Shown: piece by piece, positions 29,011-46,887 of the stretch
Position numbering within the stretch: the stretch's first letter is position 1
Layout of the letters: the number at the start of each line of letters is the position of its first letter
DNA from: Myxococcota bacterium
GTDB lineage: Bacteria; Myxococcota_A; Polyangia; Nannocystales; Nannocystaceae
Assembly: GCA_039028615.1 (NCBI GenBank)
Contig: JBCCHT010000035.1
Coordinates: forward strand, 32,001-96,000
Direction of reading: 5' to 3'
Length of the DNA: 64,000 bases
Position numbers and translations under genes: made by a program
Notes under the pieces: generated by a model
The model's database searches: none
What the model saw: only the letters and a program-made list of their open reading frames with translations
Told to the model about the DNA's origin: nothing

Positions 29011-29961
29011 ATGGCCCTTTCCCCGACAACGGTCGTCTGGTTGGTATTGCTCGTAGCGGCGGTCTACGTCGGCTACCGGGTGGCGTACTTCCTGCGCGGG
29101 CTCACCATGCTGTCCGGGCTGGCGGAAGACGTCGGTGACTTCTACGGGAAGGTCTTCGATCGGAACTGGTCGCAGGTGCTGGCGCGCCGGCCCGAGGACG
29201 AGGGTTGGTGCTCGGTCGGCTTGTGGCCGGCCCCCGATGGTTACGGTCAAGCGTGCGGGCAGCTCGTCGATCGCATGCTGGAGCAGTGCAGAATGGACCA
29301 GGTCCAACACTTGCTCGATGTCGGCTGTGGTCGTGGCAACTCGACGCAGCGTATCGCCAGCGCGTATCCACACATCAACATCGTCGGCATCGATGTGACG
29401 CCAGAGCACGTGGCCATCGCCCGGGAGCGCTTCCGGGGCCGCCAGGAGGCGGTCGAGTTCGTGAACGCAGACGCGACCGACTTGTCCATGGTCGCCGACA
29501 GCTCCCAAGACATCGTGTTTGCCTTGGAGTGTGCATTCCACTTCGATACGCGGAAGAAATTCCTGAGGGAAGCACTCCGCGTGCTGCGACCCGGTGGGCG
29601 TGCCGTCTTGGCCGACATCTGCAGCGAGCGTCGCTCTCGGGCCCTGCACAAGAAGGCCTGGCCCGCGATCGCTGCCATCGCCAACAGAATATCGCGAGGA
29701 CTCGGTGTACCCGTCGCCAACATCATGGACATCGACGAGTACCGCGAAATGGTGGCCAGCCTCGGTTTCTCGGAGACCTCGGTCGTCGACATCAACGCGG
29801 ATACATCGGAGCCGTTCTCGCGCCATGCCCTTCATTGCCTGAAGGAGTCGGACGCAGTGGGCCATGCCCTGGACCCGCGCTTTCGAGCCTACGCCGAGCA
29901 CAATTGGCACTACATTCTTCCCAGGTCATCGAGATATCTCCTCGTGGCGCTCACCAAGTGA
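29011..29961 (+). CDS. Class I SAM methyltransferase with N-terminal TM anchor
   Basis: LLDVGCGRG, ALECAFHFDTR..FL.EA.RVLRPGG; hydrophobic N-terminus. Confidence 0.9.
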   Translation: MALSPTTVVWLVLLVAAVYVGYRVAYFLRGLTMLSGLAEDVGDFYGKVFDRNWSQVLARRPEDEGWCSVGLWPAPDGYGQACGQLVDRMLEQCRMDQVQHLLDVGCGRGNSTQRIASAYPHINIVGIDVTPEHVAIARERFRGRQEAVEFVNADATDLSMVADSSQDIVFALECAFHFDTRKKFLREALRVLRPGGRAVLADICSERRSRALHKKAWPAIAAIANRISRGLGVPVANIMDIDEYREMVASLGFSETSVVDINADTSEPFSRHALHCLKESDAVGHALDPRFRAYAEHNWHYILPRSSRYLLVALTK

Positions 29962-31415
29962 TCGCCCGAGTCTTCCTCCTTTCACGTAACCCCCCGATGT
30001 CCGACGGTCCCCACGAGCCGCTCACCGCCCACACCTGCACCCCGGCTGCGAGCCGCGTTCGCGATACGGCCGCCCAAGCCCGGAGACTCGGGCACATGGT
30101 CGCGAGGTACGGACGCTCCCTCGGAGACATCCGGCACAATCGCGCGTTGATCGATCGTGCAGAGCGGGGGCTCACTGCCCACGAAGCATTCGTGACCCTC
30201 TCACTGTTGGCCGGGTCCCTCGATTCCCCGGGCGGCAAAGGCTTCGCACGCGGACCCGCAGGCCCGATGCCACCGGGCAAGGACTCACCGCCCCGCGATC
30301 TGCCCGCGCTGCACCGTGCGATCGCACGCTTGCACCCCGGCTTTCGCGAAGAGTGGTGCTTCGTCGCCGGCCATGTCGAAGCCGCAGACGGTCGGCGTTT
30401 CGGTGTCCATTGGCAATGTACACGGAAGGCCGTGCTCCCCGGCAGCGAAAGAGGCTGGATCGATCGCCAGCTCTTCGGCTTCGAGCTGGCGATCACCGAT
30501 GAGCGGGGCAGGCGGCACACCAGCACCCGCACCCAATGCGTCGCGGGCCTGTCCAACGAGGTCACCTACGAGACCAACCCCTTCGTGCTCCGGGTGAGTG
30601 AACAAGGCCTGGAGAGTCGACGATGCGGGTCGTTGTTTCCGATGCGAATCCAGTGCTCCGATCGTGGGGACGGGCTCGGAATCGAAGTGGAGCTCGGAGC
30701 AGGCGGACACGTCATTCCTTGGTGCGGAGACGGAGCGTTCGTCTCCGACCTCGGCACCATGTACGACGTGGCCAACATTCCGCTGTCGGGGGTGGTGCAT
30801 ATCGACGGAGAGGACATCGCCGTCAAAGGCCACGCGTGGTGGCAACACGCGTGGCTGACCTTGAGTTTTCCCGAGATGCCCTTCGGCCTCCACCGGCCGC
30901 TTGCGTGGTTGTATCGACAGCTCAATCTCGTTCCCCGTCCGATCAGCTGGCAGTGGTTGTTCATCCACTTGGAGGACGGCCGAGCACTCTACGCGCACCG
31001 CCCCCGGGGACTCGGGGCCCTGACCCTCGCTTTGGTGGAAGACGGCCGACATCGGTTCTTGGCCGACGGCGAGCTGAAGACCATCACCGAGACCCTCAGC
31101 CCGAAGTCGGGTGTACGTACCCCGACTCGCCTGCGTCTGAGTAGCAAGAGCGAAGATCTCGATGTCGAACTCTCTCCTTGGGTCGAACATCAAGACATGC
31201 AATTGCCCGATCTCACTCACTACCGTGAAGGCGCGGCCGATGTCTCGGGCACGCTCCGCGGAAAAGAAGTCCACGGTCTGGGTTTTGGTGAGGCCGTCGC
31301 GTTCGAGGCGATCCGCCGGGTCACTCGGCGCCGCCTCGAGACACTGGGGCTGTCGACGGAACTCACCGACGCCCTCGTACGCCGCAGCTGGATCCGCTCC
31401 GCCTTCGACGAGTGA
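29958..31415 (+). CDS. CrtC/AttH-like (lipocalin-like double barrel) protein
   Basis: GTGA overlap start (alternative ATG 29997); LHP.FREEWCFVAGH, G.AWWQHAW, W.W..IHLEDG, Y.EGA.DVSG...G.GF.E. Confidence 0.75.
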   Translation: MIARVFLLSRNPPMSDGPHEPLTAHTCTPAASRVRDTAAQARRLGHMVARYGRSLGDIRHNRALIDRAERGLTAHEAFVTLSLLAGSLDSPGGKGFARGPAGPMPPGKDSPPRDLPALHRAIARLHPGFREEWCFVAGHVEAADGRRFGVHWQCTRKAVLPGSERGWIDRQLFGFELAITDERGRRHTSTRTQCVAGLSNEVTYETNPFVLRVSEQGLESRRCGSLFPMRIQCSDRGDGLGIEVELGAGGHVIPWCGDGAFVSDLGTMYDVANIPLSGVVHIDGEDIAVKGHAWWQHAWLTLSFPEMPFGLHRPLAWLYRQLNLVPRPISWQWLFIHLEDGRALYAHRPRGLGALTLALVEDGRHRFLADGELKTITETLSPKSGVRTPTRLRLSSKSEDLDVELSPWVEHQDMQLPDLTHYREGAADVSGTLRGKEVHGLGFGEAVAFEAIRRVTRRRLETLGLSTELTDALVRRSWIRSAFDE

Positions 31416-45592: not shown

Positions 45593-46887
45593 GGTGAATT
45601 CCTCGGCTTCAGGCGCGCAATGGGGCCTTGCAGGCGATAGGGCAGGCTCTGGCAGACCCGGCCGTCCAGCTCGGGTTGCTCGAAGCGAAAGTGCCGAAGC
45701 ACATGATCGAGCAGAGGCGCCATCACGGCTTCGGCAAAGCTCTTGCCGATGCAAAACCGCGGCCCCCGGCCATACGCGAAGATGTCTGGTCTCGCCGCTT
45801 CCGTTGCGAACCTCAGAGGGTCGAACCGCATCGGGTCGGGCCATATCGCGGGGTCTCGATTGACCAAGATCGTGGGGAGGACCACCACCGACCCCTGGGC
45901 AATGTGATACCCCGCGATCTCGCAGTCGAGGGTGGTATCGCGCAAGATCAGCGACGACACCGGATGTAGACGCAGAGTCTCTTGCAACGCCAATTGAAGG
46001 GCTTGGCGCCGCGCCTCTCCCGTCGATTGCTCGATACGCCGCAGTTCCTCTGGATTGGACAACAGCTCGTGCAAGCACGATTCGAGTAGCACGGGGACGT
46101 TGATCGACGAGTACAGCAGGATCAGCACATTTTCGCGGAGCTGCTCTTCGGTCAGCCGTTGGCGCAGCTCCCGACAATTCAATACCGCGTCCGTGTCGGC
46201 GGGCTGGGACTCGATGAGATCGCGGACATGGGCTCGCAGCTCGGAGATCGCCGTACGAGCACGCGAACGCCACGGTGTCGGCACGATCCGGGTCGGCCAG
46301 ACGCGTGGGAGCAGACCCGTGAGTTCGAGGCTGCGTTGTCCCATGTGCCTCGGATCCGCCGCGATGTCGGCCCCGAGGTAGAAATTCAGCAGCACTCGAT
46401 AGTGTAGATCCAAGAGTAGATCGATGACCGGACGGGGATGGCCGTCGACGAACCGCGCGGGAGTGGTGCTGCACGCCGCCTCGATGGCAGTCCCAAAGCC
46501 CCCGCCACGGGCCACGATGGGGGCGCGGGACAGCAGTGGCCGAAAGATGCCGCCGAGTCGACGGCGTTCCGCTTCGTCTGGATAGAGCAGTTCCTTGGAA
46601 CACATCAGCTCGAGCGGCTCGAGCGTGAAGCTCTTGGTGAAAAACCCCCGAGATCGGACGAGAACCTGCTCGAATTCTTCCGCGTGCCCGATCACGACGT
46701 AGGGTCGACCGGGGGCCGGAATCGAGAACACCGGACCATGACGGCGAGCCATGCTCGCGATCGCGTCGCAGACATTGCCGTGCCTGAACATCTGCATCAA
46801 CGCCGTGGTCGTCGACGGCCCTCGCGGCACCGGGGCAGTGCGAGTTCGGCTTTCGTACGCTCGAGAGGGCTGTGGTTCCACAGGCAT
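45589..46887 (-). CDS. Cytochrome P450 (B2, paralog of 41803-43125)
   Basis: ETLRLHP, FDPLRF, heme motif YGRGPRFCIG. Confidence 0.93.
   Translation of the reverse strand: MPVEPQPSRAYESRTRTAPVPRGPSTTTALMQMFRHGNVCDAIASMARRHGPVFSIPAPGRPYVVIGHAEEFEQVLVRSRGFFTKSFTLEPLELMCSKELLYPDEAERRRLGGIFRPLLSRAPIVARGGGFGTAIEAACSTTPARFVDGHPRPVIDLLLDLHYRVLLNFYLGADIAADPRHMGQRSLELTGLLPRVWPTRIVPTPWRSRARTAISELRAHVRDLIESQPADTDAVLNCRELRQRLTEEQLRENVLILLYSSINVPVLLESCLHELLSNPEELRRIEQSTGEARRQALQLALQETLRLHPVSSLILRDTTLDCEIAGYHIAQGSVVVLPTILVNRDPAIWPDPMRFDPLRFATEAARPDIFAYGRGPRFCIGKSFAEAVMAPLLDHVLRHFRFEQPELDGRVCQSLPYRLQGPIARLKPRNSP

Follow-up and report, generated by a model that had tools for sequence, protein, structure and literature searches.

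Two kinds of enzyme stand closest to the system described here: hydratases of the CrtC/AttH type, which add water to isoprene double bonds, and trans-prenyl diphosphate synthases, which build the isoprenoid chain. In the stretch of DNA analyzed here (the window; 64,000 nucleotides, positions 32,001 to 96,000 of contig JBCCHT010000035.1, assembly GCA_039028615.1, from a member of the Nannocystaceae within the Myxococcota), domains of both kinds are joined in a single predicted protein of 750 residues, referred to as the fusion and encoded at 38183-40435 on the forward strand. Its gene lies in a block of 14 genes, and together with four of them it constitutes a module that recurs across phyla. 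The block is considered below as a candidate cluster for making or decorating an isoprenoid lipid.

Among the described hydratases, the CrtC proteins of Rubrivivax gelatinosus (RgCrtC) and Thiocapsa roseopersicina combine PF07143 with a WxD...WxW core, the aspartate of which protonates the terminal isoprene bond (PMC4717167, PMC12402844). As mutagenesis has shown, the activity of RgCrtC depends on D268, W283 and W285 (PMC12402844, PMC4717167). CrtC also accepts non-carotenoid terpenes of C13 to C20, the terminal prenyl unit being the site of hydration (PMC12402844). Kievitone hydratase of Nectria haematococca (7a0t, 7a0q), which hydrates a prenyl double bond to a tertiary alcohol (PMC5805349), shares a two-barrel lipocalin-like fold with AttH NE1406 (2ich). 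Every AttH-like enzyme characterized adds water to an isoprene double bond, with a tertiary alcohol as the result; one of them, the archaeal hydroxy-glycerol dialkyl glycerol tetraether (hydroxy-GDGT) synthase Hgs, acts on double bonds of isoprenoid membrane lipids and is encoded by a gene overlapping the one for the enzyme that makes its substrate (bioRxiv 10.1101/2025.10.20.683597). For the decoration of such chains, the Cyp128/Stf3 sulfomenaquinone pathway provides a precedent in which a cytochrome P450 (P450) and a 3'-phosphoadenosine-5'-phosphosulfate (PAPS)-dependent sulfotransferase act on an isoprenoid chain (PMC7404182).

The fusion resembles these enzymes in each of its halves. An N-terminal AttH/CrtC-type hydratase domain (approximately residues 25-385) of the two-barrel architecture PF07143 plus PF17186 (66.8 and 80.1 bits) is followed by a C-terminal trans-prenyl diphosphate synthase (approximately residues 430-750), which matches PF00348 with 152.6 bits against a cut-off of 27 over residues 490-746 of the long open reading frame (ORF). 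The synthase carries a first aspartate-rich motif, DDVQD (495-499), and a second, DDVLN (637-641), in which D495, D496, D499, D637, D638 and N641 are invariant in all 19 aligned family members; a second motif of the form DDxxN occurs in eukaryote-type geranylgeranyl diphosphate (GGPP) synthases. Positions -4 and -5 before the first motif are occupied by Ser and Gly. According to the chain-length rule for trans-prenyl synthases, such residues lift the block typical of farnesyl diphosphate (FPP) synthases, so that the chain is probably C20 or longer, while no named product-length equivalog was reached (best NCBIfam scores: IdsA, 128 vs 468 bits; GGPP_syn, 93 vs 500).

Within the hydratase domain, the elements W239-Y-D241-H-E and W259-N-W261 represent the WxD...WxW core common to AttH/CrtC relatives in the superfamily alignment (A3), with W239-Y-D241-H-E, W259 and W261 invariant in 19 of 19 family members. 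D241 is equated with D268 of RgCrtC from the order of the motifs and from the spacing between Asp and WxW in the relative P0131, which at 15 residues equals that between D268 and W283. A regular expression for the full CrtC pattern, HxW...YxD...WxW, was tried as a test and dropped, given that it returned no match in the fusion, in the stand-alone CrtC-like protein of the block (CrtC1) or in 149 superfamily proteins; since the pattern is absent from all 149, its full spacing may be specific to true CrtC. The fusion differs from CrtC in its attachment to a prenyl synthase, in the missing HxW pair, in the lack of crtB or crtI genes near any of the 80 related loci and in the company of CrtC1, a second copy with Gln in place of the Asp.

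An AlphaFold2 model of the fusion (pLDDT 88.3, predicted template-modeling score (pTM) 0.88) shows a single two-domain body with confident domain packing. In Foldseek searches, the N-terminal domain matched AttH 2ich (E 1.5e-18, TM 0.83) and kievitone hydratase 7a0t (E 1.1e-15, target TM 0.78-0.80), whereas the C-terminal domain matched the GGPP synthase 1wy0 (E 1.7e-13, target TM 0.88), GGPP synthases being the matches at the sequence level as well. Identity to kievitone hydratase and AttH NE1406 amounts to 15-24%, and these proteins stand alone, whereas the corresponding domain here is half of a bifunctional enzyme. Hgs, which is likened to the fusion by description and not by sequence, is archaeal and has a radical-SAM desaturase as its partner. 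With the trans-prenyl diphosphate synthases of P. horikoshii (1wy0) and rice (5xn5), the fusion shares PF00348, both Asp-rich motifs and the fold (TM 0.88), yet it reaches no equivalog cut-off, has the DDxxN second motif and carries a hydratase-like N-terminal domain of about 400 residues. The prenyltransferase domain of PvCPS is likewise among the Foldseek matches (ranks 36-46). In PvCPS and other fungal prenyltransferase-terpene cyclase chimeras, a chain-building domain is fused to a chain-protonating one; the fusion follows the same logic, but with a beta-barrel hydratase fold instead of an alpha-helical class I/II cyclase and with the domain order reversed.

Relatives of the fusion are widespread. 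A protein search returned at least 120 full-length relatives with 44-70% identity and the same three Pfam domains, and in a scan of 185,579 species genomes (one per species) 434 of 438 pattern matches encode a fusion relative. Carriers include Kofleriaceae, Nannocystaceae and Polyangia among the Myxococcota, Spirosoma, Telluribacter, Chitinophaga and Saprospiraceae among the Bacteroidota, as well as Cyanobacteriota and Vicinamibacterales. A linear plasmid of Streptomyces canus (NZ_CP109336.1; L103:11983-14226) encodes a 747-residue protein annotated as polyprenyl synthetase family, which is 27% identical to the fusion over the N-terminal domain and adjoins ABC transporter genes; the fused architecture thus reaches the Actinomycetota. 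In the literature searched, outside which most subscription journals lie, neither the fusion nor a cluster of this kind was found to be described.

A Pfam scan of the long ORFs (150 residues and above) between 24 and 53 kb, combined with inspection of start codons, resolved the block at 28975/29011-46887 into the following 14 genes:

29011-29961, + strand: MT1, class I S-adenosylmethionine (SAM)-dependent methyltransferase (Methyltransf_11, 83 bits; alternative GTG start at 28975)
~29997-31415, + strand: CrtC1, stand-alone CrtC/AttH-like two-barrel protein (CrtC 57.5, Lipocalin_9 41.5 bits)
31663-33015, + strand: P450a, cytochrome P450 (Pfam p450, 133.6 bits; alternative start at 31645)
33012-33956, + strand: MT2, class I SAM-dependent methyltransferase (Methyltransf_11, 76 bits)
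34057-~35394, - strand: P450b, cytochrome P450 (Pfam p450, 137 bits; longest ORF to 35517)
~35573-36847, + strand: ST, PAPS-type sulfotransferase (Sulfotransfer_3, 147 bits, cut-off 27; start uncertain within 35516-35621)
36876-37502, + strand: DUF1214 protein (Pfam, 45.6 bits; alternative start at 36855)
~37496-38002, + strand: DUF1254 protein, a separate gene after DUF1214 (Pfam, 46.4 bits)
38183-40435, + strand: fusion, 750 residues (polyprenyl_synt 152.6, Lipocalin_9 80.1, CrtC 66.8 bits)
40435-41775, + strand: APH/EcKL-fold small-molecule kinase, here APH (Pfam APH, 23.2 bits, exactly at the cut-off)
41803-43125, + strand: P450c, cytochrome P450 (Pfam, 104.6 bits)
43187-44734, - strand: class B flavin monooxygenase of the FMO type, here FMO (Pfam FMO-like, 67 bits)
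44747-45592, - strand: FkbM-family methyltransferase, here FkbM (Methyltransf_21, 61 bits; NCBIfam fkbM_fam, 97.7 bits, cut-off 37.7)
45589-46887, - strand: P450d, cytochrome P450 (Pfam, 127.5 bits)

Every domain listed in an earlier note on this DNA was recovered at its place, although the 13 genes counted there sum to 14. The genes form four transcription units: MT1-CrtC1-P450a-MT2, interrupted by a gap of about 230-250 bp before P450a; P450b alone on the opposite strand; ST-DUF1214-DUF1254-fusion-APH-P450c; and P450d-FkbM-FMO, which converges on the third unit. The earlier description of a contiguous, partly coupled block is borne out as to the coupling, in that stop and start overlap by 4 nt between P450a and MT2, by 1 nt between fusion and APH and by 4 nt between P450d and FkbM, but four of the genes sit on the minus strand. 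DUF1214 and DUF1254 probably overlap by 7 nt, which holds if the GTG at 37496 is the start. A single DUF1254-DUF1214 gene split by a frameshift was considered and rejected: single-chain proteins with both domains have DUF1254 before DUF1214, while DUF1214 comes first here, and one frameshift cannot restore the order. As the earlier note had also stated, domains of polyketide synthases, non-ribosomal peptide synthetases, terpene cyclases, squalene/phytoene synthases (SQS/PSY), UbiA, regulators and transporters, the note's exporters included, are absent from the scanned ORFs.

The 80 best fusion loci, each with flanks of up to 10 kb, were compared with the window. At E 1e-8 or better, neighbors matching P450a/b were found in 10 of the 80 loci, FkbM in 8 and APH in 4; MT1, MT2, ST, DUF1214, DUF1254 and FMO had a matching neighbor in none, and CrtC1 matched only the N-terminal domain of the fusions themselves. 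The strongest result for one pathway is the reciprocal test against the genome of the window (G000). For all 16 fusion-linked P450 ORFs (10 loci), P450a and P450b are the top two matches genome-wide, scoring 156-299 bits where the next best reaches 54-142 bits, with P450a first for 15 and second for the remaining one. In the same manner, each of the 8 fusion-linked FkbM ORFs finds a single match in the genome, the FkbM of the window, and each of the 4 fusion-linked APH ORFs finds only its APH. Since the neighbors of fusions elsewhere match these window genes best or exclusively, fusion, P450a, P450b, FkbM and APH are a conserved module, which recurs across phyla and spans 31.6-45.6 kb of the window.

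The kinase extends this picture. Its orthologues adjoin fusions in L020, L064, L078, L110 and L111. A reverse search of metagenome contigs with a four-sequence kinase alignment yielded 22 loci, 10 of them at 34% identity or more; among the six bacterial-looking contigs, a fusion adjoins the kinase in two (L110, L111), a P450a-like gene adjoins it in another (L105), and three are too short to tell. Three kinase protein matches share their longest-contig size with a fusion match (8506, 21398 and 5239 bases), which suggests further co-location of kinase and fusion, short of proof; a contig of 8.5 kb appears to encode both a 70%-identical fusion (P0002) and a 50%-identical kinase (P0275). Two contigs from this search, L106 and L109, carry eukaryote-type neighbors (ATG17, CCT motif, FAST kinase, DUF747) beside kinase homologues of 35-37% identity with EcKL and DUF1679 signatures; L107 and L108 are apparently the same sequence as L109. 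Because the homologues on L106 and L109 sit among eukaryote-type genes, the bacterial kinase family has close eukaryotic relatives, probably algal or protist.

The module genes are spread over all four transcription units of the window. Seven of the nine remaining genes are co-directional with a module gene at overlaps or short gaps, while MT1 and CrtC1 are linked more loosely across the gap of unit 1. A single cluster is supported in so far as the module spans all units and most other genes are co-directional or coupled with it. The single pathway proposed in the earlier note gains from co-occurrence for five of the 14 genes and not for the other nine, and synteny of the whole set, which it had suggested examining, is absent from the 40 relatives compared and from the 80 fusion loci.

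According to all-against-all clustering of ORFs, 13 of the 80 fusions have P450, FkbM, APH and/or UDP-glycosyltransferase genes as neighbors; a fourteenth locus, L058, has an LMF1-like membrane protein as its only such neighbor. Other recurring neighbors are a GT28/monogalactosyldiacylglycerol (MGDG)-synthase-like glycosyltransferase, an FAD_binding_4 oxidase and LytB/IspH; LytB/IspH genes occur in three of the loci with tailoring genes, and glycosyltransferases in others. A compact arrangement is that of Telluribacter humicola KCTC 42819 (L043:8743-18130), a co-directional operon of GT28-like glycosyltransferase, fusion, LMF1-like protein, FkbM and two P450s. Similar arrangements are present in L031, L036, L037 and L079. 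Since the operon occurs in cultured Bacteroidota, it offers a tractable system in which to look for the product of the family.

In an approximate tree (FastTree) of 80 fusions, comprising the window and 79 loci after one locus with an ORF below 650 residues had been dropped, all 14 rows with tailoring genes fall within one clade of 31 rows (support 100). The window itself belongs to a clade of seven rows (support 97), six of which have tailoring genes; its other members are two Myxococcota bins, a bin labeled proteobacterium and three Vicinamibacterales, while two other Nannocystaceae bins are placed elsewhere.

Composition sets the block apart from its genome, an assembly of 12.3 Mb in 94 contigs. 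Its G+C content is 0.647 against 0.683 for the genome, a value as low being found in only 1.4% of 1822 same-size windows. Genome-wide, PF00067 has 28 matches, corresponding to about 25 P450 genes, four of which lie in this block, within 15 kb; the chance of such a clump is roughly estimated at 1e-4. PF07143 is matched nowhere in the genome outside the two CrtC-domain genes of the block, fusion and CrtC1. Given this share of P450s, the restriction of CrtC domains and the low G+C content, the grouping is unlikely to be due to chance. The block has a foreign-looking composition and, as far as the searched genomes go, is confined to this species; composition together with placement in the tree suggests that the cluster was acquired horizontally. 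No tRNA gene was seen in the window, nor integrase or transposase domains in the scanned ORFs, so that the borders of the island are set by composition only. The sole sequencing run containing the stretch is a marine metagenome, possibly the source of the DNA itself, and no RNA sequencing run containing it is listed.

The reading favored here, at a probability of roughly 0.5, is that the block is one real cluster that most likely builds an isoprenoid lipid and decorates it, the product being a hydrated, oxidized, methylated and sulfated or phosphorylated polyprenyl compound. Gene content, intact motifs, the five-gene module, operon coupling and atypical composition are matters of observation, whereas the chemistry of each step, the length of the chain and the product of the pathway are inferred. 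As envisaged, the synthase domain would build an all-trans prenyl diphosphate, probably of C20 or longer, whereupon Asp241 would protonate one of its trisubstituted double bonds, in the simplest case that at the omega end, and addition of water would yield a tertiary alcohol, the chemistry known from CrtC, from kievitone hydratase and from Hgs. P450a and P450b could then introduce further hydroxyl groups, FkbM might O-methylate a hydroxyl group, and the APH/EcKL-fold kinase would phosphorylate one, a role that a glycosyltransferase may take in related clusters. To this common route the window would add a sulfate ester through the sulfotransferase, methylation by MT1 and MT2, and further oxidation by P450c, P450d and FMO.

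A bolder version, which is tentative and rated below the favored reading, regards the fusion as the founding member of an unrecognized bifunctional class of terpene-forming enzymes, in which the synthase hands its chain to an Asp-dependent barrel that hydrates it or cyclizes it in a class II-like fashion. The cluster would then produce a new class of lipids, methoxylated, sulfated and/or phosphorylated hydroxy-polyprenyls, with glycosylated counterparts coming from related operons in Bacteroidota, Cyanobacteria and Acidobacteriota. Isoprenoid clusters as such are known; this one is distinguished by its uncharacterized bifunctional core and by a set of decorations common to no relative. Terpenoid clusters are usually recognized by a cyclase or a squalene/phytoene synthase, while the present block has neither and its core family occurs in 434 species genomes of at least four phyla. 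If the fusion does couple elongation with hydration or cyclization, it would open a new way into the isoprenoid chemistry of bacteria and provide genome mining with a new signature gene. The window genome is uncultured and marine, whereas orthologous compact operons are available in the cultured Telluribacter humicola KCTC 42819 and Spirosoma panaciterrae DSM 21099. Moreover, the sulfotransferase and kinase arms could reveal bacterial routes to sulfated or phosphorylated terpenoid lipids, few of which are known.

A number of findings weigh against the favored reading. The full gene set is absent from all 40 relatives and from every genome searched. Among these relatives, a full-length fusion occurs only in one genome of the same family (G014), where its neighbors are unrelated and no other gene of the cluster is present, and the nearest reference-genome relative of the fusion (L016, 50% identity) has unrelated neighbors as well. 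Nine of the 14 genes are tied to the pathway by position and operon structure only, and genes for a phosphatase, an exporter, a regulator and a redox partner of the P450s are missing from the block. None of its enzymes reaches an NCBIfam equivalog cut-off, and the HxW pair of RgCrtC (H239/W241) has no counterpart in the N-terminal domain of the fusion. As regards the tree, the groups were defined by a feature and then counted for it, related rows are not independent, and the join between the window and L016 is flagged as a meeting of long branches. Finally, in view of the 31 of 80 loci that pair the fusion with a GT39-like membrane protein, the common role of the family may lie in envelope biology rather than in secondary metabolism or the tailoring of natural products.

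This membrane protein, of about 600 residues with some 7-10 hydrophobic segments, is encoded directly downstream of the fusion in those 31 loci (L027:12353-14161, L038:12239-14050, L050:12198-14021 and 28 further loci), mostly in Kofleriaceae and Polyangia. It has no Pfam match; a feature search of the ESM Atlas placed it with clusters automatically named glycosyltransferase family 39, about 10% of whose members carry PMT_2, which is a lead only. No relatedness was detectable between it (c3) and the LMF1-like neighbor. As GT39-type enzymes use sugar donors linked to polyprenyl phosphate, the pairing hints, by analogy, at a polyprenyl-type lipid as the usual product of the family, and under the bolder version the product in Kofleriaceae might be a dedicated carrier lipid for the GT39-like glycosyltransferase. 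Paralogues of the GT39-like protein (30-46%) are encoded in the genome of the window on contigs C1, C3, C12, C28 and C32, none of them in the window.

The main rival, a serious one even if rather improbable, is the tailoring of hydroxy-carotenoids: the fusion would then be a CrtE-CrtC pair of GGPP synthase and carotenoid 1,2-hydratase, and the block would act on a carotenoid with a backbone made elsewhere in the genome, yielding 1-hydroxy, methoxy, oxidized and sulfated xanthophylls. The genome does encode CrtI-like, CrtB-like and polyprenyl synthase proteins on contig C43, C57 has a second phytoene-synthase-like gene adjacent to one for a CarH-like regulator, and its only CrtC-domain proteins lie in the block. 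Myxococcota, Bacteroidota and Cyanobacteria make hydroxylated carotenoid glycosides, glycosyltransferases lie beside the fusion in several loci, and bacterial carotenoid sulfates exist. Yet the crtI/crtB genes already have a separate polyprenyl synthase beside them, and neither the flanks of the 80 fusion loci (E 1e-5 or better) nor the scanned ORFs of the window contain a CrtB or CrtI homologue. Furthermore, the two fused steps would not be consecutive in a carotenoid pathway, yet in the model the domains lie closely packed against each other (pTM 0.88); the commonest fusion neighbor is GT39-like and, as enzymes of that kind use polyprenyl-phosphate-linked donors, fits a polyprenyl product better; and the IspH genes beside fusions point to a dedicated supply of precursors. 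The carotenoid hydroxylase LUT5/CYP97A3 is among the best solved matches of P450a (E 3e-19), but this similarity is weak, at about 72 bits.

Two further explanations are less favored than the carotenoid one. Under the first, a mosaic island, the module landed beside unrelated oxidation and conjugation genes (P450c/d, FMO, ST and the methyltransferases) that serve xenobiotics or other substrates. P450s, FMOs, sulfotransferases, methyltransferases and EcKL-type kinases are classic detoxification families too, nine of the 14 genes lie beside no fusion in the 80 loci, the stretch of low G+C runs on to about 54 kb, taking in unrelated genes, and the matches of the sulfotransferase, present in 11 of the 40 relatives, are of paralogue level only (30-39% identity) and stand in other contexts. 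What makes this quite improbable is the way in which the window-specific genes are interleaved and coupled with the module, as in P450a-MT2, P450d-FkbM-FMO and ST-DUF1214-DUF1254-fusion-APH-P450c, with module genes in all four units between 31.6 and 45.6 kb. The other explanation, a shade more remote still, holds that a sterol, hopanoid or prenylquinone scaffold is made elsewhere and that the fused synthase only supplies or binds a prenyl chain, with the P450s, methyltransferases and sulfotransferase working in the manner of sterol modification or of the sulfomenaquinone pathway. It can draw on two genes of the squalene/oxidosqualene-cyclase family and a tandem SQS/PSY pair on other contigs, on the weak matches of P450a and P450c to sterol-acting P450s such as CYP46A1, CYP11A1 and CYP51, and on the resemblance of the sulfotransferase to 2zq5 and 2z6v together with the Cyp128/Stf3 precedent (PMC7404182). 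Sterol, quinone and cyclase genes are missing from the block itself as well as from the compact operons in which the conserved module recurs, and an enzyme that builds the chain within the cluster is the simplest source of the scaffold.

The same-genus genome G001 has the two halves of the fusion on separate contigs, L014 (G001:C1144) and L015 (G001:C350), each 43% identical to the fusion of the window. The synthase is a stand-alone ORF there, near genes for a methyltransferase, an epimerase, an acyltransferase and a flavin-dependent (FAD) monooxygenase, and the CrtC-like ORF, which adjoins a gene of the fatty-acid hydroxylase family, runs off its contig. A tblastn search with 20 window proteins against 60 kb of G014 and the two contigs of G001 recovered only the fusion, besides weak methyltransferase matches.

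CrtC1 differs from the fusion at the decisive position. In the superfamily alignment it reads WWQHA at 281-285, with Q283 where the family has Asp and with A285; along with its relatives P0125 and P0126 it shows W-[WI]-Q-H-A instead of W-x-D-[HR]-E, while WxW is kept. Because Gln replaces the catalytic Asp, CrtC1 is probably a binding protein or another non-hydratase, perhaps a lipid binder, and of the two CrtC/AttH domains named in the earlier note, both of which Pfam finds, only that of the fusion retains the aspartate. An exhaustive search of 1.84 billion cluster representatives returned only P0125 (35% identity) and P0126 (40%) below E 1e-30, a word-indexed search gave three weak matches, and CrtC1 was not found in the 40 relatives.

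As to the tailoring enzymes, MT1 carries the motif LLDVGCGRG and a hydrophobic segment resembling a transmembrane helix at residues 1-19, is 33% identical to MT2 and reaches no NCBIfam model at its cut-off. The earlier note spoke of an O-methylated product; for the class I methyltransferases, O- and C-methylation are indistinguishable at the level of sequence. The heme motifs of P450a (FLHGNRKCIG), P450b (FLRGPRKCVG) and P450c (FGRGPRFCMG) all fit FxxGxxxCxG, from which the YGRGPRFCIG of P450d (Cys379) departs; P450a and P450b are 31% identical, P450c and P450d 36%. The P450s of the cluster belong to the lower-scoring half of the PF00067 matches of the genome (90-133 bits vs 189-332 for most others), and their best solved matches are from eukaryote-type families (CYP3A, CYP46A1, CYP97A3, BM3) and not from typical bacterial ones.

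The sulfotransferase matches the PDB entries 2zq5 (E 1.1e-43) and 2z6v (E 3.9e-32), which are listed as uncharacterized proteins and which we take to be mycobacterial Stf enzymes; to this extent the analogy to Stf3 drawn in the earlier note is upheld. Its PRTGTT loop is presumably the 5'-phosphosulfate-binding loop of the consensus. With the Cyp128/Stf3 pathway the block shares the pairing of a P450 and a PAPS sulfotransferase, but it contains no menaquinone genes. Five loci of sulfotransferase paralogues in the relatives have no DUF1214, DUF1254 or fusion gene within their short flanks, and one has a P450 nearby. DUF1214 was not found in the 40 relatives, neither DUF protein has a PDB sequence match, and no paper in the literature searched mentions both domains.

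In the kinase, the catalytic loop HGDCRPGN (270-277; form HxDxxxxN), DWE (314-316) with the metal-binding Asp, and the VKFQ lysine K122 of strand beta-3 are invariant in four of four orthologues, which score up to 43.9 bits for APH and also match EcKL. FMO carries GAGAGG at 15, FRGTVVHSSEF at 164 and GAGKSA at 193, which correspond to the two dinucleotide-binding motifs and the FxGxxxHxxx[YF] motif; its best PDB match is 8z12 (E 5.5e-16).

Elsewhere in the genome, contig C43 (L127:6246-14212) encodes a desaturase of the amine-oxidase family, an SQS/PSY protein and a polyprenyl synthase, and on contig C57 (L128:7089-8984) a MerR/B12-binding, CarH-like regulator gene lies directly upstream of a second SQS/PSY gene. 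Just beyond the cluster, a 1403-residue protein with five to six LGFP repeats according to Pfam (47698-51909, + strand; G+C content of the stretch 0.62-0.64) is followed by a CarboxypepD_reg-domain protein (51906-53105, - strand). As both genes share the low G+C content, the compositionally odd region reaches to about 54 kb. The next gene encodes a Ser/Thr protein kinase of 1030 residues with a long TPR region (53281-56373, - strand), relatives of which appeared in 10 other fusion loci upon ORF clustering; it is probably a common myxobacterial gene.

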